From the IMG/VR virus record IMGVR_UViG_3300020576_006930, positions 32,001 to 96,000 of that record: a DNA stretch of 64,000 nucleotides; one strand, given 5' to 3'. The notes beneath the pieces are model-generated. The model did no database searches, was not told where the DNA came from, and saw nothing but the letters and a program-made list of their open reading frames with translations. The position numbers and the translations under genes were made by a program. Shown in pieces: positions 7,266 to 35,144 of this stretch (its first letter is position 1; each line of letters starts with the position of its first letter). This stretch comes from a virus. Lineage: Duplodnaviria > Caudoviricetes.

Positions 7266-7682
7266 ATGATTAAACTTACTGAAATATGCGAATCGTTGGG
7301 AGCGGACCGGCTGGTTGCGTTGGATAAAGAATTTGCCGCCAAACCAAAAATTCCGGATTTGACCCCGGCGGAAATTCAACAAACGGTTCAACAATTTAAA
7401 ATTTTGCCAAGTGAGAAACGCCGGCAAATTGTTCGGGCTATTCAACGACCGTGTGCGTATTGTGAAAAGGAATTTAAACTGCCAACGACCGGAAAATCGC
7501 ATGGTATTTGTTTACGGCATTTTGAAGAACAATTTAAAGCTATGGGTATGAAAGCGCCAACAAAAAACGTAAAAGACGCTTCCGCTGATCTTAAAGAATT
7601 GTCTGATGCGGAAAGAAAACTGGTAGTAAATCTCTTCGCCATCTCCCGCAAACGAAAACAAAATCCGTCACCTGCGAAATAA
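7266..7682 (+). CDS. hypothetical protein with CxxC/CxxH zinc site
   Basis: MIKLTEI start after TATTTAT; CAYC...HGICLRH. Confidence 0.7.
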   Translation: MIKLTEICESLGADRLVALDKEFAAKPKIPDLTPAEIQQTVQQFKILPSEKRRQIVRAIQRPCAYCEKEFKLPTTGKSHGICLRHFEEQFKAMGMKAPTKNVKDASADLKELSDAERKLVVNLFAISRKRKQNPSPAK

Positions 7683-7774
7683 CCAATTTCTATTTTGTTG
7701 GTAATGAATAGGTTATAACTAAAATGAAAAAAGGCTTGACCTTTTCCAAAAGTATGAGATAATTATTCCCGTAA

Positions 7775-8720
7775 TCAAGATAGTGAATTGATTATTTGAG
7801 GAACGCATCTTCAAAAAAAGAATTTTAGTTTTTGATCTTTGTAGCATAGAATTTACGGGGGGTATGGCCTCCATTATCATCCGCAAGGGTGGTATAAAGA
7901 TAAACCGTGGCGACACGGCCAAAGGGACACTCCCTAACGGGTGCCCACCAATTCGCAAGGATTGGACAACTATACAACTAACAAGGTCTTTAAACATCGC
8001 CCAAAAGGTTGGTGTTATGTCTGAAGTTGGGGAGAAAAATGCTGGCCCAGGGTAACTCCGCAAGCTGGCTACTAACGACGCCGACGAGCTCTATCTCCCG
8101 CTAAGCGCAACAATTAAGAATGAGACTTCAAGTTAAACATCAATGGTATGACCCGCAAGGAAACGCTTTGATGTAGTTTGAGAGAAACCGGGCACGGCTT
8201 ATACTGAGCACGGAATCTTGAAAGACGGAACGAGTACCGCAAGGAAAGGTCAGGACTGGTGTTGGATTTTGTAGACCGAAAGGCTTACGAAACAACAAGC
8301 ACCGCACCAGTTTGTTAGGTTCGAAAATAGCTCAAAAGTAGAGCAATTGTCTTTAGAACAATAGGTTGTGGTGTCAAAGCCACTTTCATTAAAAGCAAAG
8401 CCGGTGCTAATTATACTTGAAAAGGTATTAATACAGAGGCTCGCAAGAGTAACTTTGTCAATCGTAGCCCGCAAGGCGAAAGTTGTTCGTGTAGAAGTGA
8501 ACGGTGTGGTTAGCGCCACTTGTTGCTCGCAAGGTAAACGTTTGAAGAAACGCGGAATAAGGTATAGTTATGATGGAAAGGCCACCATCTAAAAATAGGC
8601 ATACCTATCAGATTCATCTTACGAGCCCCGTGTTCGGAGAATGAGGATGAAGAGGAAGGCGATCTCGCAAGGTCGTGATAATCTCTGACGGCTGATACGC
8701 AACGGTGTAATCTCAACCGA
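7775..8720 (+). ncRNA. giant ornate ncRNA, GOLLD-like (~950 nt)
   Basis: No credible ORF. It has its own promoter (TTGACC...GATAAT 7736-7763), ~9 CGCAAG-capped hairpins and a 3' end CGGTGTAATCTCAACCG, in a phage tRNA-island context. Family assignment is by resemblance only. Confidence 0.65.
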
Positions 8721-8869
8721 AGCACCTTCAATTTCCTGTAAAGAAGACATTTGGAACTTTTAGTGAAATCCTTTACTTGACATTGAAATTTTCCTACCAA
8801 ATTTAGTTTTTGTGTTTTTGAACATATACTTATCATTATAAATGGTATTATATGGTGGAGGTTCAAATT

Positions 8870-10171: not shown

Positions 10172-10396
10172 GGTTGTTGGGTTGGACATCATCCGGCTTT
10201 GTTTTAATATGATTATATCCGTGAACCCCAAATGTCCCCGGTGTAATATAGAAATGTCATATATCACTGAGGTTTATCCGTGGAGCGATGAACACTGGCA
10301 ATGCTCGGAATGTGATGGGACATATTGTATTTTTCAATTCTGTCCGGAGTGTGGGAAAGAACTGACGGCTCCGTGGGAATGTGATTGTGACAAAGT

Positions 10397-10606
10397 ATGA
10401 AACCTGATAATAGAAAAGAATTGCGTGATGCCTTGCTCGGCCAGCAAATTACGGATGTGGTTTTCCATGACTCTCATGGATTGGTTATTGACATTGTATT
10501 AGAGGATGGCCACAAAATGTCGGTTTGTACCTATGAGGGCGATGACGCTATTCGTTCAGGATTGTTTGGGGATTTTTATGTATCACTGGATGGAAAGGAA
10601 TTATGA
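10397..10606 (+). CDS. hypothetical protein
   Basis: One of a run of coupled small ORFs (10.2-11.3 kb). Confidence 0.65.
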   Translation: MKPDNRKELRDALLGQQITDVVFHDSHGLVIDIVLEDGHKMSVCTYEGDDAIRSGLFGDFYVSLDGKEL

Positions 10607-18227: not shown

Positions 18228-19262
18228 ATGAACATTCTATTGGACAGAGACACATTCCGCAATGGGGTGTTCATGCGTGACAAAAACAAATGTGTCATTT
18301 GTGGGCAACCGGCTCAGGATGCGCATCACATTATTGAACGTAGATTATTTGACGATGGTGGTTATTATCTTGACAATGGCGCTTCATTATGTGCGACGTG
18401 TCATATTAAGGCCGAATCTACTGAGATTAGTTGCGAAGCTATCAGAGCAGGAGCTGGAATCGTGGACATTGTTTTGCCGCTTCACTTATATCGGGATAAT
18501 GTTTACGATAAGTGGGGCAACATAATCAATGTCAATGGCACGCGGCTGAAAGGCGAATTATTCGGTGATGTCAGTGTTCAGAAGATTTTGAAACAGGGTG
18601 GAGTTCTTAGCAAGTTTGTGGATTATGTAAAATATCCCCGCACTTACCATTTACCTTGGAGTGACGGTTTGACGAATGATGATCGGGTAATGACTCCGGA
18701 GGATTTAAAATTTTTAGAAGATAGTTCGGTGGTCGCTACGGAAAAAATGGATGGAGAAAATACCACCATTTATACCGATTACATTCACGCTCGTTCGGTG
18801 GATAGTCGTTCACATTGGACACAATCATATGTGCGCCAATTACAAAGTAAAATTGGACATGATATCCCAAAGGGTTGGCGGATTTGTGGTGAGAATCTTT
18901 ATGCCAAACATTCCATCAAGTATGATAAATTGGAAGATTTCTTTCTGATGTTTTCGATTTGGGATGACAAAAATCAGTGTTTGAGTTGGTTGGAAACCGT
19001 GGAATGGGCAAAGTTGTTGGGATTAAAAGTGGTAGACGTGTTCTTTGTCGGGCCGTGTTGGAAAGACACGGTACATAAGCTATATGAGGGCAATTCAAAA
19101 CATAAGCCCATTGAAGGTTATGTGGTCAGGACATTGAACGGTTTCTCTTATGGTAATTTTAGAAAATGTACTGGTAAATTTGTTAGAAAAAACCACGTCC
19201 AGACCAGTCACCACTGGCGGTTTGAGAAGATCGAAAAGAATGAGTTATCGTCCGTAGGGTGA
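18228..19262 (+). CDS. HNH domain-ATP-dependent RNA ligase fusion
   Basis: N-terminal CVIC..DAHHI...NGASLCATCH; C-terminal KYPRTYHLPWS, motif I EKMDGEN, GENLYA, EGYVVR, KFVR. Confidence 0.88.
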   Translation: MNILLDRDTFRNGVFMRDKNKCVICGQPAQDAHHIIERRLFDDGGYYLDNGASLCATCHIKAESTEISCEAIRAGAGIVDIVLPLHLYRDNVYDKWGNIINVNGTRLKGELFGDVSVQKILKQGGVLSKFVDYVKYPRTYHLPWSDGLTNDDRVMTPEDLKFLEDSSVVATEKMDGENTTIYTDYIHARSVDSRSHWTQSYVRQLQSKIGHDIPKGWRICGENLYAKHSIKYDKLEDFFLMFSIWDDKNQCLSWLETVEWAKLLGLKVVDVFFVGPCWKDTVHKLYEGNSKHKPIEGYVVRTLNGFSYGNFRKCTGKFVRKNHVQTSHHWRFEKIEKNELSSVG

Positions 19263-20562: not shown

Positions 20563-20918
20563 ATTTCTGATTCCCCCATATCAACAATCACCGTTTTTCC
20601 CAACGGTTCAAATTTGTTGACCAAATCCGGATTTATTTCCCGTGGGGGAATCAATTTTAATTTAACAATTTTGCCTCAGTCCAGACGGCCTACTTCTAGT
20701 TAAGCACAGACGAAGTAATGAAGAAATGGAGTCTGGGTGCTCTGAGTGCAAATTCATTCGCCAGTTATCTAATCTGGTGCCAACAGCAATCAGGAAAATT
20801 AAAACATTCGTAGGAAGCTATGCTGACCGCAAGAGTGTTTTGGTTGGAATGGTTGGGCCGCTGTTCTGAAAACAAAATTATACGGGGCCGTTCACACCCC
20901 GTTGACAAAGTGAACAAT

Positions 20919-21005
20919 GGTAGGGTATCCAAATGGCTAAAGGACACGGTCTGTAAAACCGCCGCTCAAAAGGCTTTGTGAGTTCGAATCTCATCCCTAC
21001 CACCA
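20919..21005 (+). tRNA. tRNA-Tyr (GTA)
   Basis: Loop CTGTAAA, long variable arm; CCA. Confidence 0.9.
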
Positions 21006-21010
21006 ATTTA

Positions 21011-21065
21011 AAGATGCCAACAGCAAACAAAAATTCAATTATAATGAAAAAAAGATGGCATCTTG
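21011..21065 (+). repeat. ACAGCAA RNA module (related copies at 20776, 23193, 25053, 33767)
   Basis: AAGATGCCA-ACAGCAA...TGGCATCTT-G closing helix. Confidence 0.75.
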
Positions 21066-21103
21066 TTTTAGAACCCTCTATTTATATGGGAGAGGTCTAA
21101 TTT

Positions 21104-21529
21104 ATGAAAAAATTTAATTGTTTATATTGTAAAAAAGAAAAAACACACCAATCGTCTCAGTCTATGGGGAAATATTGTTCGGCAAAATGTCAACAAAATT
21201 TTCAAATAGAGAAAAAAATGGAAAGTGGAAATTGTTTGTATACTCCGGGAATAAGAAATTGGTGTTATAATAATTTAAAACAGGTATGTGATGTGTGTGA
21301 TACGGGATTAATATGGAATAATAAACCGCTGAGATTACAAGTCGATCACAGAAATGGAAATTCCAGAGATAACCGTAGAAATAATTTAAGAATGATTTGT
21401 CCCAATTGTCACACCCAAACCGAAAATTGGGGGATAAAAAACGCATCTCCTGAGGGAGTTGAAAAAATGGTAGTTGCGGGGAAATTAACACAAAAGAATT
21501 TTTGGTCATATAAAGTAATAGTAACCTAA
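21104..21529 (+). CDS. HNH homing endonuclease
   Basis: LQVDHRNGNSRDNRRNNLRMICPNCH; the stop lies inside tRNA-Asp. Confidence 0.9.
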   Translation: MKKFNCLYCKKEKTHQSSQSMGKYCSAKCQQNFQIEKKMESGNCLYTPGIRNWCYNNLKQVCDVCDTGLIWNNKPLRLQVDHRNGNSRDNRRNNLRMICPNCHTQTENWGIKNASPEGVEKMVVAGKLTQKNFWSYKVIVT

Positions 21530-21577
21530 CGCACTGTCTATGCGAAGTCCGGGGAGCGTAACCCCGTATGACCGCCA
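21504..21577 (+). tRNA. tRNA-Asp (GTC)
   Basis: Loop CTGTCTA; atypical T-loop; CCA. Confidence 0.75.
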
Positions 21578-21763
21578 TTTTGATCTGTTGGCTAATCCAC
21601 CTTGCTACGCATTGAGTATGGATCGTAGAGCACGCGGACGGTTTGAATGAATCCCGAACAAGTAGGCTACTAACCGAAAAGTAAGGCTGAGTGAGAAAAC
21701 CGGTGCTTGAAACTGATGATTGGCTTAGTAACCAATAAGCGTTCTGACAGATTAATTTTTTAT

Positions 21764-21837
21764 ACCCCTTTGTTGTAGTGGTAGCAAAGTTCTCTTTGAA
21801 AGAAAAAGTGGTGGTTCGATTCCATCAAGGGGTGCCA
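21764..21837 (+). tRNA. tRNA-Gln (TTG)
   Basis: Loop CTTTGAA; CCA. Confidence 0.85.
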
Positions 21838-22041
21838 ATTTAATGGGTGTACAGTAGTTCAATAAATGGGATAGACATAAAAAGTCTGGGTAGCGCCTCA
21901 GTCCAATTATGGAACCAGTATGAAATCCCCTAGTCGTTGAGAATCTGAGAACACAGAATGAGATAGACGTTCACGCTGAACGGAATATTGTGAAATCCTC
22001 TAGTAAGTGATACGCTGTAAATCAGCGGCCCCATATTTTAT

Positions 22042-22115
22042 GTTCCGGTCGATTAATGGTAGGTCACTGCCCTTTCAAGGCGGGAGCGGGAGTTCGATTC
22101 TCCCTCGGAACACCA
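22042..22115 (+). tRNA. tRNA-Glu (TTC)
   Basis: Loop CTTTCAA; CCA. Confidence 0.9.
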
Positions 22116-22123
22116 TTTTTAAT

Positions 22124-22196
22124 GCTCCTATGATGTAATGCAACATCTTCGGCCGATTACCGAAGCTTGGTGGTTCAAGTCCACCTGGGAGTACCA
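22124..22196 (+). tRNA. tRNA-Ile (GAT), C33 variant
   Basis: Loop CCGATTA; CCA. Confidence 0.7.
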
Positions 22197-22202
22197 ATTT
22201 AC

Positions 22203-22279
22203 GGCCCCATCGTCTATATGTGTTAGGACATCATGTTCTCAACATGAAAAATAGGGTTCAAATCCCAATGGGGCTACCA
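22203..22279 (+). tRNA. tRNA-Glu (CTC)
   Basis: Loop TTCTCAA; CCA. Confidence 0.85.
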
Positions 22280-22361
22280 ATTTCGAATTCCCTGAGTGAG
22301 TCCGCAATTCTATACCGTGATATTCGACGGTGAATGTGGGTTAAACACACCGGGCATTTAC

Positions 22362-22437
22362 GGCCCCGTCGTCTAGAGGACAAGGATTGCGGATTCTCAA
22401 TTCGCGGAACTCGGTTTGATCCCGAGCGGGGCTACCA
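22362..22437 (+). tRNA. tRNA-Glu (CTC), second copy
   Basis: Loop TTCTCAA; CCA. Confidence 0.8.
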
Positions 22438-22439
22438 AT

Positions 22440-22670
22440 TTACATGGGCTTTTTCCATTCCTCAGACTCTTTCAATTCTTTTATAAATTGTTCGTGACGA
22501 TTAAGCCCGACAAGATTTTCATATAATTTTAAGGCTTCAGCGGACATACAATTTACTGACGCATTTTGGATTTTCTTTTGGGTGGTGTATTTTGATGAAT
22601 TTGTAATCATAATTTTTTCAGTGATATTCCGTTTACGGGATGTAATATCAAGGTGGGAAGTATATCTCAT
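22440..22670 (-). CDS. hypothetical protein (antisense within the tRNA island)
   Basis: AT-rich 76-aa ORF filling the gap between tRNAs. Confidence 0.5.
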   Translation of the reverse strand: MRYTSHLDITSRKRNITEKIMITNSSKYTTQKKIQNASVNCMSAEALKLYENLVGLNRHEQFIKELKESEEWKKPM

Positions 22671-22848
22671 TCTTGAAAAGAAGATATGGGGTTAAACCCC
22701 ATTAGGTAATACCCTACTAATCCAATTTCCATAAGCTATGAACCAACAAATAAACAACGGCATTAGATGGTTGTAACGGGTGCGAAGTCCGACCCAATGA
22801 ACATAATTCATTGGTGTAAGCCAGACATAGTAAAGTGGAAAGATTTAT

Positions 22849-22923
22849 TCCAGAGTAGTGTCAAAGTAGCACACGCGGCTGTTAACCGTGTTAGTGTTGG
22901 TGCGAGTCCAACTTCTGGAGCCA
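22849..22923 (+). tRNA. tRNA-Asn (GTT)
   Basis: Loop CTGTTAA; CCA. Confidence 0.85.
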
Positions 22924-23192
22924 ATTTTTGTTGCGCTAACGGGCTAGAGTAAAGTAACTCAGTCGCCTTTATAAGCGAAAGATAGTAGGTTAACGCCCTA
23001 TATGACCCGCAGGTATCTCTAAGACATGAGGTCGCAACAAAACGATTTTCAACACCGATAAATAACGATGCTGTTATATTTCCGGACCAACGGTTGACCG
23101 ACAAAAACAGCATCGGTTTTGAACCTATTAGTTCAACGCATGATGAATGTGAGGATGAGAAGTTAGCTCACGATAAAATCTTCTCCACTTTT

Positions 23193-23248
23193 AAGATGCC
23201 AACAGCAACCAAATCACTTGCCTGTTAAGCAAAAAAGATGGCATCTTG
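23193..23248 (+). repeat. ACAGCAA RNA module carrying an Asn-type anticodon stem-loop
   Basis: TTGC-CTGTTAA-GCAA inside the AAGATGCCA/TGGCATCTT helix. Confidence 0.75.
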
Positions 23249-23486
23249 TTTTTATGGTCGGCGTCTGAATCTGCTGGTGAGGTTAGCTTCATAGGATGAT
23301 AATAATGACGAGTTAACCCGGCCGCCGATTTTTTGAAGGAACTGGCGGACTGAGATGTGTATAGTTGAGGTCCGATAGACAATGCCAGCCTTCAATTTTA
23401 TGGTGATATTCATTTGATTTTTTTGTTTTGGTGATGATATTTATCAGCAAATACGTCGTATTTACGATGTCAAAACAAAGGTTTAA

Positions 23487-23711
23487 ATGAAAAAATATCA
23501 AGAAATTAGTCATTATATCAAATTTAAAGCTCGTAATGGAGATGGAGAAGTGATATCGATAGTAGAGGATGTAGATAAAGCGAAATTTATTTATGATTCT
23601 TTAGAAGAAATCCCCCCGTTCGGTCCAGATAAAATTATGGTAGAAAATAATAGAATGTGGAAAGTAATTAAACAAGACGGATTAACTATTCTAGCCAAAA
23701 CTCTAAAATAA
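23487..23711 (+). CDS. hypothetical protein
   Basis: 74 aa. Confidence 0.6.
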   Translation: MKKYQEISHYIKFKARNGDGEVISIVEDVDKAKFIYDSLEEIPPFGPDKIMVENNRMWKVIKQDGLTILAKTLK

Positions 23712-23772
23712 TTTAGTAAAAAATACGGATTCAAATCGGTTTTTCCTCCCCATCGATAATACTTATTGGCAT

Positions 23773-24678
23773 ATGAAAATGGGAGTCGTAAAATGTAGTC
23801 GGTGTCGTAAAGAATTCGAAAAACCCCAATCTGAGATTAAGAGAATGGTAAAAAGAAAATGGGTAAACCATTTTTGTGGTACCAAATGTCTTTCTGAATT
23901 CGGCGTGGTGTTTCGGAAGAAACTTTCCGATGAAAGAATAAAATCGTATTATCTTTCTCCTAAGAAATGTCCAAATTGTGATTCAGTCATTCCACACGAA
24001 GACAAATCACAAAAAACATATTGTTCATCAAAATGTTTCGGTATCCATTCTCAAAAAAACGGTGGCCATTGTCATTGGTCAGATGAAGATAAAGAACGCT
24101 TACGGCAACAAGCCAAAAACAATCCCAAATTTGTTCCGGGGTGGAATAGAGGGAAACGGTATGCTCCAACAATTACATTAAAATGTAGAAATTGTGGGGG
24201 TGATTTTATACAAACAATTTCCAAAATAAATTCTAATAAAACGCAAACTTGCGGAAAAGAATGTAGAAGAAAATTACAATCTATCAATTTACTTAACCAG
24301 TACAAAAATGGGAAGAAAGTATATGGCGGAACAACCAAGTGGTTAAAATACAAAGATATAAAAGTTCAGGGCTCATATGAATATAGAACTTGTCAAATCT
24401 TAGACCGTTGGCAACAGGTCAATAAAATTAAAAAATGGGAATATACAAACGATAGATTTGAGTATATAGGAACTGACGGGAATAACCACAATTACTTGAT
24501 GGATTTCAAGATATGGAATAACGATGGTTCTTTTTATTATCTAGAAACTAAAGGATATGAAAAAGAAAATGATAGGTTGAAATGGAAATCTGTCGTGGAT
24601 GCCGGATACAAATTGGATGTGTGGTTTGATCCTGATATTAGACAGAGAGAAAAAGAATTTATGGAGGTTGTAGCATAA
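23773..24678 (+). CDS. homing endonuclease: Cys-finger repeats + TnsA-like PD-(D/E)xK domain
   Basis: Repeated CxxC...(F/Y)CxxxC; GSYE...YLMDF...YLETKG; the stop lies inside tRNA-His. Confidence 0.8.
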   Translation: MKMGVVKCSRCRKEFEKPQSEIKRMVKRKWVNHFCGTKCLSEFGVVFRKKLSDERIKSYYLSPKKCPNCDSVIPHEDKSQKTYCSSKCFGIHSQKNGGHCHWSDEDKERLRQQAKNNPKFVPGWNRGKRYAPTITLKCRNCGGDFIQTISKINSNKTQTCGKECRRKLQSINLLNQYKNGKKVYGGTTKWLKYKDIKVQGSYEYRTCQILDRWQQVNKIKKWEYTNDRFEYIGTDGNNHNYLMDFKIWNNDGSFYYLETKGYEKENDRLKWKSVVDAGYKLDVWFDPDIRQREKEFMEVVA

Positions 24679-24741
24679 CTGGTTAATGTCCTAGGTTGTG
24701 AACCTAGTTTTATGCGGATTCGAATTCCGTCAACCTCCCCA
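24663..24741 (+). tRNA. tRNA-His (GTG) with encoded G-1
   Basis: Loop TTGTGAA; G-1:C73; CCA. Confidence 0.9.
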
Positions 24742-25052
24742 ATTTCAGCGGACTCAGTCGCATAGCTACGACTGGATACAACACAACTGAGCCACGACGC
24801 GGAGATGAAGCTCGAGCTTTAATAAGTCAATGTGATCGCAGTTGAAACCGCTGTCGTATTTCCAATGGAATGAGTATCTGATTAAAAACACAAGGAGAGA
24901 GATTGTTCCGCTGCAGCGGACAGACCTCCGTGAAATCCTCCCGAAGTTTAGGAGAAAGTTCCTTTTTAGTTTACGCCAGGTTAGGGATGGATTATTCCTC
25001 ACGGAAGTCTCAATTGACAAGCGAGCGTCCAGAAACCCACTGGCTGAAATTT

Positions 25053-25166
25053 TAGATGCGGACAGCAAGCAATCGATTATGTCAAACTCTTAGTGTGGGT
25101 TCGAATCCCATGTATGGTGTAATGGTAGCACAGGAGTCCCGCAAGGGAATCAAAAAACGCATCTAG
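25053..25166 (+). ncRNA. ACAGCAA module containing a circularly permuted tRNA elbow (YrlA/Y-RNA-like)
   Basis: The T-arm GTGGG-TTCGAAT-CCCAT precedes the D-arm GTGT-AATGGTA-GCAC; both are closed by ACTCT/GGAGT. Confidence 0.7.
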
Positions 25167-25351
25167 TTTTTCGAGTAGTAATAATAGGAAGTGACCAATC
25201 GGTATCCGCCTCATGAATGTAACCCAGGACTGGTAGCCTGTCGTGCGAGCAAGTTAATCCCTCGCTGGTGAAAGGGTAGGACAAGTTGATACCGGCGTAT
25301 TATTATGAGCGGTAGTTGGGACCTGATAAGTTCACAAACCATTCGATTTAT

Positions 25352-25425
25352 GGCCCATTCGTCTATCAGCAGGACCACTCGTTTTCAGCGAGAAGAGGCC
25401 GGAGCGTCACCGGCATGGGCTACCA
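25352..25425 (+). tRNA. tRNA-Glu (TTC)
   Basis: Loop TTTTCAG; atypical T-loop; CCA. Confidence 0.75.
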
Positions 25426-25779
25426 CTTTCGGCAGTCATAGGGAGTCATGACCTTAGAACACTCATGTTGTGTTATGCTCTGAAATAAAGTCACATTAAA
25501 AATTAAGATAAATACATGTATAATCAAAATAAGTAGATGTGATGGACACGTAAGAGAGACTGCGACCATTTCGGGTATGTCTTGGGAGAGTTATCGGGTT
25601 CAATTCCCGAATAGTCCACCATACGGGCTATGGGATGGTCCTGTCGCTAGCGACAAAAGCGGGTTCGATCCCCGTCATATCCATTGATTTGACCCGGAGA
25701 ATATCCGATAAATACGACACTTGGTTGGGTGCTATTCCAGAAGCTTAAAATACCCTTCAAAAGACGGGTCACCAATTTC

Positions 25780-25854
25780 GCAGTATTGATGCTAGTGGCA
25801 ACATGCGGCTTTCCCAAAGCTGATTCGTCAGTTCGATTCTGATATACTGCTCCA
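25780..25854 (+). tRNA. tRNA-Gly (CCC)
   Basis: Loop TTCCCAA; U73; CCA. Confidence 0.88.
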
Positions 25855-25858
25855 TTTC

Positions 25859-25956
25859 GCCGGTTTGGTCTAACCACCTCTTAATCGGGGACGGACGGTT
25901 TGGAAAGACGGCCGGGTTAGCCCCGGACAACGTAGGTTCAAATCCTACAATCGGCT
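25859..25956 (+). ncRNA. tRNA scaffold with D-loop insert
   Basis: GCCGGTT/AATCGGC acceptor, canonical T-arm, ~30-nt helix within the D-loop. Confidence 0.55.
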
Positions 25957-26130
25957 CGAATTTACGGGGTTACAAGGAAAGGTTCGGTAAACGAAAACTA
26001 GGCCCATTTCAACAAACGCAAGCTCCGGAATAATGTACAACCCTTGCCTGAGATGGATTGGTGGTGAACACCATTTAAGTAGACCGTTACTGATCAGCGG
26101 TTCGATTCCGCTTATCTCCACCATTTATAA

Positions 26131-26206
26131 CGGAGTGTCGCCTAGTGGTATGGCGCTTGTTTCGGGAACAAGAATAACGGGAGTTCGATTCTCCCCACTC
26201 CGACCA
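26131..26206 (+). tRNA. tRNA-Pro (CGG)
   Basis: Loop TTCGGGA; CCA. Confidence 0.9.
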
Positions 26207-26212
26207 GTTTAT

Positions 26213-26289
26213 CGCCTGATCGTTTAAAAAACTAAGACACCGACCCTTGGGGTCGGAAATGCCAAGGTAAAGTCTGGCAAAGGCGACCA
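26213..26289 (+). tRNA. atypical/pseudo tRNA (loop CCTTGGG)
   Basis: Cloverleaf with degenerate T-loop; CCA. Confidence 0.5.
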
Positions 26290-26446
26290 TTTATGCCATC
26301 CAGGATCGGGTGCAATTCCCTTTACACAGAGTACTCTAGCGTGAATCTGTGGGTGGCCCATTTTAACGGACTTGTCTTTTGATAAGGATGTAATGTAACC
26401 AGACACCAAATCGTGGGCCTGATAATCCCGTTCCGTTTTACTATTT

Positions 26447-26878
26447 ATGAATATGGAGTACAAATCGTTTTTCAATTATCTAAAAGAAGGTGTGGAAAAA
26501 TATCTCATTTGGCAGCCGACCGGAATTTTCCGGGCGATGGTTGATTATTTAGATACTTTAACCTCATCAAACAACGAGGTCTATCGGGGAGCCTCCGATA
26601 AGGAAATTTCTATATTGAAAAATACCAAAGTTTTTAAATCCAACGGCAAAGGTAATACCCGGGATAATGCCGGGACATATGTTTCCGCAGATATCCATTT
26701 AGCCGCCGCTTTTGCGCTGAGATATTACCGGGATGGCCACGGAGGTTCGGTGCTCGTTTTAGAAAAGAGCAAATTACCTGAATTAGTCGCCCGCGATCCT
26801 GGAAATTTTACCGTGGACCATGTTCCACTGGAAGCGGTAAAACGCATCATCAATTTAAAAGACTTTACCGGTCGATGA
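26447..26878 (+). CDS. hypothetical protein, possible ADP-ribosyltransferase-like fold
   Basis: VYRG ... GTYVSADIHLAAAFA ... GGSVLVLE pattern. Confidence 0.45.
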   Translation: MNMEYKSFFNYLKEGVEKYLIWQPTGIFRAMVDYLDTLTSSNNEVYRGASDKEISILKNTKVFKSNGKGNTRDNAGTYVSADIHLAAAFALRYYRDGHGGSVLVLEKSKLPELVARDPGNFTVDHVPLEAVKRIINLKDFTGR

Positions 26879-27137
26879 AGGAAAGACAATACTGGCTGGG
26901 GTGAGATTCCCCTCATAAGGCCAATTATTGGAAAGAGAAGCACCTTCCAGGGTGTGATGGTACGACGGTACCGTAGTGAAATCCCTTCGTCAAATGTAAA
27001 AATGAGAGAGATAATAGATGGGAACCTGATGTGGTGTAATTGGCAGCACAGCCTTTAAAGGCAGGTTGAGGTTCAATTCCTCACGACTAGGCCATCTTAA
27101 TGAACATTCGTGAAATCCTCATCTAATTTTTTAGTTC

Positions 27138-27214
27138 GGGGTGGTAGCTTAATTGGTTAAAGCGGCAGCCTGTCACGTTGTAGACTGGGGGTTCGAGTCC
27201 CCTTCATCCCGCCA
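27138..27214 (+). tRNA. tRNA-Asp (GTC)
   Basis: Loop CTGTCAC; CCA. Confidence 0.9.
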
Positions 27215-27545
27215 TTTTATGATTGAGTCCGGAGCCATCGTCCGCGGTGATGGCCGGAGAGTTCCAAACTGAACACTCAATCGCCACTTTAGTTACAAAG
27301 AGAAGATGGAGCTGGTAATAATTATTGTCATTATATTACCCCTCTCCGTGAAAGATGATTCCTGTGTAGAAAGCCAGGACAGATTGTAGTTGCACTGGTA
27401 AATGGTGCAATCGATTGGTTTGACAACCAAAGCAAAGAATACCTTGCATAAAGGTCGGAAACTATAACAACACCTAACTAATGTTGTAGGAGGTTCCCGT
27501 AAAGGTGCTTGTAATATAGCCTAGCAATCCTTTGTAACTTATTTT

Positions 27546-27682
27546 GCCATGCTAGTTCAATGTAGAACCCATCTCTTAAAAAGCCGATAGTCTCCCTGAA
27601 CGGAGAAGTTAGTGGGGTGTTTGCCCTGCGATGTAATTAGGCCAGATGAACTGCTAGTGCCAAGTCTAGCGCATGGCTCCCA
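27546..27682 (+). ncRNA. tRNA scaffold with ~60-nt insert in the anticodon loop (CT-TAA-AA)
   Basis: GCCATGC/GCATGGC acceptor, D-arm, and CATCT/AGATG stem enclosing the insert. Confidence 0.65.
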
Positions 27683-27883
27683 TTTTGGACAACCCTGGCC
27701 TTTGACGCCGGGGGCTGATGAAGGACGAGTCTCTCCGATTGAATATCGCAGGTGTTAGACCACTTAGATATTCGTTTCAGTGTCCGATCTTTTTTCCAAA
27801 TTTTTTATTGATTAGTTTAAAGTATATAACTCAATTCATACTTGAACTATTACGATAATCCTAATCAATTGATTTAACAAATT

Positions 27884-28732
27884 ATGTATAAAACCAACCG
27901 TGCCTTTACGCTCATCGAACTTTTAGTCGTCATTGCCATAATAGGCATCCTGGCGGTCATGCTGCTGCCCACCTTGACCAGGAGCAAGAATACCGCTAAT
28001 GGTATAATCTGTATGAATAATGGGCGCCAACTTTCTCTGGGTTGGTTAATGTATGCACACGATAACAACGAACGAATTGTCTATGCGAGTGATGATGGTC
28101 TGGGTCCAGTTAATCCACTAAATCAATTTGCCTGGACACAGAGTCATATGGATTATGACCCAAACAACCAAGCAAACTGGGATATCACCATTGATATTAT
28201 GGTCGGCCCCCTGTGGAGTTACAATCGTAACGCTAAAATTTACAAATGTCCTGGAGATAAATCCGTCGTCTTGGTAGATGGGGTAGAAAAGCCACGTGTA
28301 CGTAGCATCTGTATGAATTTGTATATGGGAGGTTATGCTGGAACCGACGGTGGATCGTGGTATGTCCGGCAAAACTATGTTTATTTGAAAACCACCGATT
28401 TAAATCTACGCACCTCCCCCGGCCCAGCTAAAACCTTTTTGTTTTTGGATCAGCGTGAAGATACAATCAACTGGGGAAATTTTCAAGTTCATATGATTGG
28501 TTACATTAACCATAATGGTAGTATGTATGGTTTTTATCAAGATATGCCTGGAATGTATCATAATAACGCAGCCGGGATAAGTTTTGCGGATGGGCACTCG
28601 GAAATTCACAAATGGAAAGATCCCCGGACGACGCCGCCCATTCAGAAAAACATCGCCGTAATTGGATATGTGGAATCCCAATATAACAAAGATGTTGAGT
28701 GGCTACAAGAACGAGCCACTAGGCCAAAATAA
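27884..28732 (+). CDS. prepilin-type N-methylation / H-X9-DG domain protein (PVC-type pseudopilin)
   Basis: AFTLIELLVVIAIIGILAVMLLP, CMNNGRQL, YKCPGD, HNNAAGISFADGH. Confidence 0.9.
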   Translation: MYKTNRAFTLIELLVVIAIIGILAVMLLPTLTRSKNTANGIICMNNGRQLSLGWLMYAHDNNERIVYASDDGLGPVNPLNQFAWTQSHMDYDPNNQANWDITIDIMVGPLWSYNRNAKIYKCPGDKSVVLVDGVEKPRVRSICMNLYMGGYAGTDGGSWYVRQNYVYLKTTDLNLRTSPGPAKTFLFLDQREDTINWGNFQVHMIGYINHNGSMYGFYQDMPGMYHNNAAGISFADGHSEIHKWKDPRTTPPIQKNIAVIGYVESQYNKDVEWLQERATRPK

Positions 28733-34454: not shown

Positions 34455-34637
34455 ATGCGTCGGCAAACGGTAAAAATGTCAGGTTTTGACCCTTGCGGCC
34501 AAAAGCGGTTTTTTTCTTCTAAAAATGAGGCTTGGAAAGAAGCCGAACGGCAAGCTAGAGAGAGTGCCGGAGCCGTTTTTAAAAAACCATACCGCTGCAA
34601 GTATTGTAAGGGATTTCATTTTACCTCTGTGGATTAG
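34455..34637 (+). CDS. small zinc-finger phage protein
   Basis: CGQKRFF...YRCKYCKGFHFTS. Confidence 0.65.
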   Translation: MRRQTVKMSGFDPCGQKRFFSSKNEAWKEAERQARESAGAVFKKPYRCKYCKGFHFTSVD

Positions 34638-34692
34638 GTCGATATTATTATATTGACAAACCACCGCTGATCTGATATTATATAGGCTGAAA

Positions 34693-35004
34693 GTTTGTCG
34701 TAAGTGACTCTACGCTGGGGAGAAATCCTTAGAGGAAGTTCGCTGGTGAATAGCAGATATGGGAGAATCATCCTGAGCCCTTGTAAAACTCGGATAAGTT
34801 CAGCAGGAAGGGCGAAATAAAGGGGTTTTAGAATAAGCCTGTGATTCGTTTGAACCAAAAATTATCACTAATCCTAAATTGTCAAAGAGTAGTGCTACTC
34901 ATTGTAAAGACAAGGTTGGAGCAGTTACCCTTAACGGGTGACCAGTCGCAAGACTGAGATAAATGTAGGGATAAAACAGGACAGCGGCTACGGCTGCGGC
35001 AAAC
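34693..35004 (+). ncRNA. rnpB: RNase P RNA (phage-encoded, reduced)
   Basis: P1 GTTTGTCGTA/TGCGGCAAAC; GAGGAAGTTCGCTG pairs with AACAGGACAGCGGCTA (P4); AGATAAATG junction; own promoter at 34653-34679. Confidence 0.8.
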
Positions 35005-35070
35005 ATCTTGTATAGGTTTTAACAGAACCTTTAGTGACAAGCTGTCGTGAATAACTATAAATCTGTTAAT

Positions 35071-35144
35071 GGGGCTATAGTATAATGGTATCACATTTCC
35101 CTCGCACGGAAAAAATTCCGGTTCGATCCCGGATAGCTCCACCA
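35071..35144 (+). tRNA. tRNA-Ala (CGC)
   Basis: G3:U70, loop CTCGCAC; CCA. Confidence 0.88.

Follow-up and report, generated by a model that had tools for sequence, protein, structure and literature searches.

Why does a phage tRNA array contain, between its tRNA genes, a short module that frames a different insert each time it appears? We address this question in a stretch of 64,000 nt (hereafter the window), which is bases 32001-96000 of the 139-kb IMG/VR virus record IMGVR_UViG_3300020576_006930 (Duplodnaviria; Caudoviricetes; completeness estimate 39%). The module is a new structured RNA family, absent from Rfam 15 and from the literature searched. The family is apparently phage-restricted, and its members join two covarying helices through a nearly invariant junction.

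A descriptor scan of the window, which required a helix directly abutting A(N)AGAY at the 5' side and TGAAATC at the 3' side, returned six units (A-F), all on the + strand. They share a common layout: a closing helix (P1), A-N-AGA, a cargo helix (P2), GAAC, a linker, G-UGAAAUC, and the 3' strand of P1. The linker between GAAC and G-UGAAAUC is 3-7 nt long or contains extra hairpins. What the frame carries ranges from nothing (unit F) up to a whole tRNA-like body (unit E). Several forms recur in other phages, whose loci are cited by L number and position: a P2-less form like unit F at L274:12017-12073, the AGAGAU...GACC subtype of unit C at, for example, L298:4123-4189, and the insert position of unit D, reused at L291:6777-6920.

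An earlier sequence-only reading of this stretch had described about six copies between 21865 and 27122. The repeats are where it placed them, but the map differs: five units lie in that range, and unit F lies outside it, just after the GOLLD RNA. A supposed variant (26876-26914) and a supposed separate copy (26928-26988) are a single unit, D, joined by the 8-bp GAUGAAGG/CCUUCGUC helix, and an unconstrained minimum free energy fold of this unit retains P1 and P2. The purine-rich 5' strand and the (G)UGAAAUCC 3' strand are conserved as described; a third block, GAAC, located 3-7 nt before (G)UGAAAUC, had been overlooked. The same reading was right that the frame strands enclose unrelated inserts, since the sequence between the blocks differs from copy to copy. 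It was also right that the last copy holds a tRNA-like cargo: the insert of unit E includes an anticodon-less tRNA-like element at 27025-27091, with a weak Rfam tRNA match (29.7 bits).

The repetition exceeds chance within the record itself. TGAAATCC has ten + strand occurrences in the whole record, five of them within 5.3 kb. The joint pattern G[AG][AG]A[GT]AGA...TGAAATCC occurs five times on the + strand and never on the - strand of the 139-kb record, against a block-shuffle mean of 0.07; this pattern was composed after the copies were seen, so the clustering is the real evidence. Cognate 5' and 3' strands together formed 29 bp, whereas swapped strands averaged 17.2 bp, and only 4 of 720 permutations were as good.

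At the structural level, P1 is present in every member, with the bases before GAU-AGA pairing with those after UGAAAUC-C. P2 opens with the terminal CA of AGACA paired to the initial UG of UGGAAC, and it holds the variable cargo. Pairs were counted on an alignment of 19 distinct sequences (18 from other phages), in which 78.7% of cells were paired. The covariation score was 0.376, compared to 0.124 for shuffled alignments (0/500 as high) and 0.07-0.14 with the partners slid. P1 pair 12-80 presented five pair types and 11-81 three, neither with an unpaired cell; P2 pairs 21-57 and 22-56 presented six and five, and pair 13-79 was G-C in 19/19 sequences. The G-U pairs present in the helices fit an RNA read from the motif strand. 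Strong covariation of P1 and P2 across other phages thus bears out the proposal that the motif is a structured RNA. It is not the simple internal loop first suggested: it is a junction of two covarying helices with GAAC as a third conserved strand and an optional third arm.

Between these freely varying helices, the junction comprises about 19-20 nearly invariant nucleotides in three strands: 5' G-A-[U/G/A]-A-G-A, then G-A-A-C after P2, and finally G-U-G-A-A-A-U-C-C. Two helices thus meet in the family core, or three when the linker carries hairpins. Members are 39-120 nt long, with 14-99 nt between the motif halves, and the minimal ones (unit F, unit B and a 43-nt member in L332) have about 40 nt. 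Readings of the two strands as a kink-turn, a loop E (sarcin-ricin) motif, a Shine-Dalgarno sequence or a mini-ORF were rejected, as no register suits all copies.

A covariance model (R2) was built from the 19-sequence alignment, whose seed included unit A and not units B, C, E or F. It recovered the units outside the seed: B with 35.0 bits (E 2.8e-8), F with 21.5 bits (E 3.5e-4), C with 18.5 bits (E 2.8e-3) and E with 18.1 bits (E 3.8e-3); unit A, as a seed member, scored 54.7 bits. Unit D was missed because of its long insert. Over 1.44 Mb of unrelated huge-phage loci, R2 gave no match. In other-phage arrays already known to carry the motif, it picked up extra, more divergent copies. In these, P2 may be missing, its first pair may be U-A for C-G, GAAC may become GACC, GAAU or GAAA, and, as unit D shows, the linker may be expanded by large hairpins.

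Table 1. Motif units of the window, nearby features, and the related locus in another phage. Positions are window coordinates unless another record is named.
Feature	Position	Strand	Basis	P1	A-N-AGA strand	P2 or cargo	GAAC block	Linker	UGAAAUC	Remarks
Unit A	21868-21930	+	descriptor scan	21868-21870/21928-21930 (GGG/CCC)	AUAGA 21871-21875	P2 21876-21880/21907-21911 (CAUAA/UUAUG), hairpin inside	GAAC 21912-21915	21916-21920	21921-21927	
Unit B	21960-22000	+	descriptor scan	21960-21962/21998-22000 (GAG/CUC)	AUAGA 21963-21967	P2 21968-21973/21977-21982 (CGUUCA/UGAACG)	GAAU 21983-21986	21987-21990	21991-21997	41 nt
Unit C	24894-24941	+	descriptor scan	24894-24897/24938-24941 (GGAG/CUCC)	AGAGA 24898-24902	P2 hairpin 24904-24922	GACC 24923-24926	24927-24930	24931-24937	
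Unit D	26874-26991	+	descriptor scan	26874-26881/26984-26991 (8 bp)	AAAGA 26882-26886	P2 26887-26891/26926-26930 (CAAUA/UAUUG) around T-arm-like hairpin GGGG-UGAGAUU-CCCC	GAAA 26931-26934	26935-26976, two extra hairpins	26977-26983	118 nt
Unit E	27002-27122	+	descriptor scan	27002-27006/27118-27122 (AUGAG/CUCAU)	AGAGA 27007-27011	cargo 27012-27101	GAAC 27102-27105	27106-27110	27111-27117	tRNA-Asp 15 nt downstream
Unit F (minimal form)	8738-8776	+	descriptor scan	8738-8743/8771-8776 (GUAAAG/CUUUAC, perfect 6 bp)	A-AGA 8744-8747	no real P2 (CAUUUG), no cargo	GAAC 8754-8757	8758-8763	8764-8770	19 nt 3' of GOLLD
GOLLD RNA	8252-8719	+								
HNH endonuclease-RNA ligase fusion	18228-19262	+	phrog_24030 over full length, E 1e-128							
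HNH gene	21104-21529									near motif units
143-aa open reading frame	26447-26878	+								no Pfam or PHROG match; stop codon within 5' strand of unit D P1
L271 (IMGVR_UViG_3300050821_009835, 164000-182000)	motif RNAs at locus 7682-7859 and ~10310-10430	-

The commonest subtype of the family presents a cargo hairpin with a covarying stem and a conserved UGACGA loop. It is found at L274:1652-1716 and at about 15 near-identical loci (L276, L277, L280, L281, L284, L286, L287, L290, L291, L293, L297-L299 and L302). GACG loops are also seen in window unit D and in the L271 copies, and the UGACGA loop may be a second functional site.

To place the motif beyond this record, IMG/VR was scanned by exact patterns. 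The pattern taken from units A and B gave one match, IMGVR_UViG_3300050821_009835, which carries two motif copies in its tRNA array and exposed the third block, GGAAC, a few bases 5' of GUGAAAUCC. The resulting three-block pattern (GATAGACA N8-38 GGAAC N4-7 TGAAATCC) was found in 33 IMG/VR stretches of about 17 distinct types, a few of which would be expected by chance according to our estimate. Among 35 IMG/VR pattern matches, 26 presented both P1 of at least 4 bp and P2 of at least 3 bp. A further scan for the AG form added nine helix-validated matches of six distinct types. In 596 Gb of prokaryote genomes, the three-block pattern gave 28 matches, about the chance level by our estimate. Only one of these had the flanking helices, and it was the L272 phage contig, which had been binned into a Paceibacterota metagenome-assembled genome. 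Besides being a control, the prokaryote scan is evidence that, in this sequence form, the family is restricted to phages.

Searches by other routes gave no members. No relatives were found through the open reading frames (ORFs) of the array, and five relatives by TerL (44-84% identity) had no motif copies. Phages sharing the HNH-RNA ligase had none in five whole GenBank records, in 49 whole IMG/VR records, or in the 2.46 Mb of sequence surrounding this gene in cultured and uncultured huge phages. Thus, the distribution of the family does not follow the TerL or HNH-RNA ligase phylogenies. BLAST of a common member against cultured phages gave no match. In line with the first reading, which could assign it to no known family, nothing catalogued accounts for the motif: Rfam 15 cmscan of the units gave none at gathering thresholds or at E<=5. 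Over 16 further loci at gathering thresholds, and over 21000-28000 of the window at E<=5, Rfam returned tRNA and tmRNA only. Full-text literature searches for the conserved words and for RNA motifs of phage tRNA arrays gave no description of the family.

Regarding genomic context, the motif is found in the IMG/VR stretches chiefly within tRNA arrays, on their sense strand. Where ARAGORN detects tRNAs near it, it is on their strand and between them, at distances of ~6 to ~390 nt from the neighbouring tRNA ends. The units are not positioned in front of genes, unlike riboswitches. A role as intrinsic terminator was rejected: TTTT follows P1 in 17/44 members, against 11% in the background, and mostly in one subtype.

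We hold with moderate confidence that the units are small structured RNA genes, or domains of tRNA-operon transcripts, whose junction would act as a recognition handle standing in for the T-arm or elbow of a tRNA. This is the best reading because the 3' strand is T-loop-like in sequence and because, in one phage, the motif stands at the T-arm position. The T-loop form is U-N-N-R-A, two bases, and then a helix beginning with C. Set beside a tRNA-type T-loop, the motif has UGAAA-UC followed by an invariant C with an invariant partner G, the G and the U being separated by the junction and cargo. In the L1 stalk of Escherichia coli 23S rRNA, read directly, the second T-loop is U2167-GAAA-UA-CC (2167-2175) and the first is AGGA(U)A (2114-2119).

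The T-arm-like role is supported by the tRNA-like RNAs of IMGVR_UViG_3300050821_009835 (L271), because the motif stands there at the T-arm position. Two RNAs of ~115 nt lie between tRNA genes, with a normal acceptor 5' strand and D-arm, no CCA end, and an aberrant anticodon region with a common CAGUAG. The motif, its P1 extended, occupies the place of the T-arm, and next comes a strand complementary to the acceptor 5' strand. As a separate observation, an acceptor-less tRNA-like element (D-arm, anticodon-like arm and T-arm) lies just upstream of the motif at L291:9090-9150, on the - strand. Farther upstream, the 9-nt AAUACAUUA can pair with UAAUGUAUU, which overlaps the extended P1 of the motif, and this suggests alternative long-range helices.

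The units would be transcribed along with the tRNAs of the polycistronic operon, and the tRNA-processing enzymes that free the flanking tRNAs would also release them. The invariant junction would fold into a single compact tertiary module, possibly of T-loop type. As a constant handle, it would present the variable inserts to a partner, which could be the tRNA-handling machinery, a phage protein or another RNA.

Several results weigh against this reading. Eight of the 16 checked loci outside the window have no ARAGORN-detectable tRNA, so the linkage to tRNAs is frequent, not obligatory; one of the eight, L300, sits within a long opposite-strand ORF and looks like a chance match. No protein family recurs beside the motif in the checked loci. 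The purine:purine platform of double T-loop modules is not conserved in the family. Two additional pairings for the junction failed: a third helix of GAAC with GU..UC around a GAAA bulge has four uncompensated mismatches, and Watson-Crick pairing of the spacer base to the third GAAC base, suggested by the C-type units, is refuted by five distinct AG...GAAC members.

Alternatively, the junction would be a module of the double T-loop type that docks on the elbow of the tRNAs made beside it or of host tRNAs, which we consider rather improbable. These modules have the signature AGNNA...UGNNA, with a six-residue core made up of AG..A in one pentad and UG..A in its partner (Lehmann 2013, PMC3664808). 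Their functional platform pairs two purines, one located two positions ahead of a pentad and one at the centre of the partner pentad, and in the L1 stalk and T-box leaders it is almost always R:R (PMC3664808, Table 1). UGAAA is invariant in all members, followed as in these modules by two bases and a helix, and the purine-rich A[G/U]AGA stands opposite. This strand reads AGAGA in units C and E and throughout an AG subfamily, which matches the AGNNA signature. The topology is also like that of the L1 stalk (helix, pentad 1, variable hairpin, pentad 2, helix again), and the motif is situated among tRNAs. However, most members have AUAGA, with U at position 2 of the first pentad, and unit D has AAAGA, so the core G at this position is gone. 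At the platform position two bases ahead of pentad 1, the family has a variable P1 base in a Watson-Crick pair (column 12: G, U, A or C), the corresponding position ahead of UGAAA mostly holds C or U, and the conserved GAAC strand has no counterpart in known double T-loop modules. Shifting the first pentad to AGACA does not help, as the final CA of that pentad is engaged in P2. A descriptor based on structure alone, with a helix closing AGNNA...UGNNA, gave 193 matches against 196 in the control. Judged on its AUAGA majority and unconserved platform, the motif is not classed as a member of this group. A catalytic role is at best about as improbable: A-N-AGA, GAAC and G-UGAAAUC would be the core of a new self-cleaving ribozyme class that cuts tRNA-array transcripts. 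About 19 nearly invariant junction nucleotides flanked by freely varying helices, in phage-restricted elements of 39-120 nt with several copies per genome within polycistronic non-coding arrays, fit a new self-cleaving ribozyme as well as a handle. Theta ribozymes at phage tRNAs are a precedent (PMC10879173), and, like the motif, they are small RNA elements specific to phages that lie among tRNA genes and came to light through motif searches of viral metagenomes. But theta ribozymes are HDV-like nested double pseudoknots that cleave at most 5 nt from the tRNA 3' end (PMC10879173). The motif topology is neither HDV-like nor hammerhead, and the motif keeps no fixed distance to tRNAs. No Rfam ribozyme family, including the hammerhead, twister, twister-sister, pistol and hatchet models, matched in 21000-28000 (E<=5) or in the 16 further loci (gathering thresholds). 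An HDV-like theta ribozyme, which has a catalytic C in J4/2, was also rejected on its own terms, with no HDV-type Rfam match and, on inspection of L279 by eye, no pairing between the sequence 5' of P1 and that 3' of P2. The same applies to a hammerhead (core CUGANGA...GAAA...UH), as CUGACGAG in one subtype forms the loop of a hairpin with a covarying stem of its own.

It is also possible, if unlikely, that the junction is the site of a phage or host protein or of a small ligand, as the first reading proposed, with the RNA as decoy, scaffold or sensor in the manner of a Y RNA with Ro60 or of a riboswitch aptamer. Invariant junctions are typical of aptamers and protein sites, and unit D adjoins an ORF of predicted ADP-ribosyltransferase (ART) fold. 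Against this stand the lack of a recurrent neighbouring protein family and the placement of the units, which are not upstream of ORFs as riboswitches are. A known case of similar layout is that of YrlA and other bacterial Y RNAs (RF02553; PMC4201824), in which a closing stem with a conserved motif likewise frames a tRNA-like module, as in unit E; most cargos of our motif, however, are not tRNA-like. The YrlA model matched tRNA-like places only and none of the units. The Rsr-binding motif, GNCGAAN0-1G (PMC4201824), is absent from the frames. A TROVE/Ro60 gene (PF05731) is absent from the 139-kb fragment, itself 39% complete. The identity as a Y RNA bound by Ro60 was rejected on these three grounds. 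Finally, the motif could be a repeat at the DNA level, such as the target or scar of an HNH homing endonuclease, a promoter or a small mobile element, and HNH genes do lie nearby in the window (21104-21529 and 18228-19262) and in L295. We regard this as extremely unlikely. Wherever a copy has tRNAs as neighbours, it lies on their strand, the half-to-half spacing varies from 14 to 99 nt with unrelated sequence between the blocks, and the helices are maintained via compensatory changes and G-U pairs. The DNA-repeat explanation is thus disfavoured by covariation.

Stable small RNAs are known from phage tRNA clusters, such as the species 1 and 2 RNAs of T4 and RNA1/RNA2 of T5. Like the motif, they are small structured RNAs beside phage tRNA genes, some with tRNA-like parts. 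They retain the tRNA acceptor end and T-arm, whereas the motif is defined by its own invariant junction, carries arbitrary cargo, and occurs across many unrelated phage groups. Phage tRNA arrays are proving rich in non-tRNA RNAs –GOLLD, theta ribozymes, tRNA-like stable RNAs– and the motif is an additional, well-defined, covariation-supported and apparently phage-restricted class in them. Small size together with about twenty invariant nucleotides is the profile by which ribozymes, aptamers or specific protein handles were recognized earlier. At ~40 nt, the minimal members make direct biochemical and structural study feasible. Moreover, a covariance model of the family would spare annotators from calling such stretches empty spacer or small ORFs.

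Regarding the setting in the window, the + strand carries 42 tRNA genes, a tmRNA and the GOLLD RNA, with none on the other strand. Phage structural genes, terminase and portal are likewise in the window, and units A-E are placed inside its tRNA array. The HNH endonuclease-RNA ligase fusion shares 45-60% identity with proteins of many huge phages (Salicola SCTP-2, Caulobacter CcrBL9, Ralstonia RsoM2USA, Acinetobacter ME3). The ORF that ends within unit D is grouped by ESM Atlas with ART-fold proteins (structural TM 0.52-0.76), the leads being Tpt1/KptA RNA 2'-phosphotransferase, DUF952, Arr and PARP. Together, this ORF and the HNH-RNA ligase hint at an RNA repair or modification set within the tRNA array.

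Besides the motif studied here, a second family that combines a frame with a cargo, the ACAGCAA cassette, is seen on the + strand of the window at 20783, 21020, 23202 and 25062. Its example at ~21010-21075 reads AAGAUGCCA-ACAGCAA-cargo-AAAAAAGA-UGGCAUCUU, with a frame unlike that of our motif. In window 34550-35100, Rfam gives no family at E<=1, and UGUAAAGACAAGG in this region resembles GUAAAGAAGACA of unit F.

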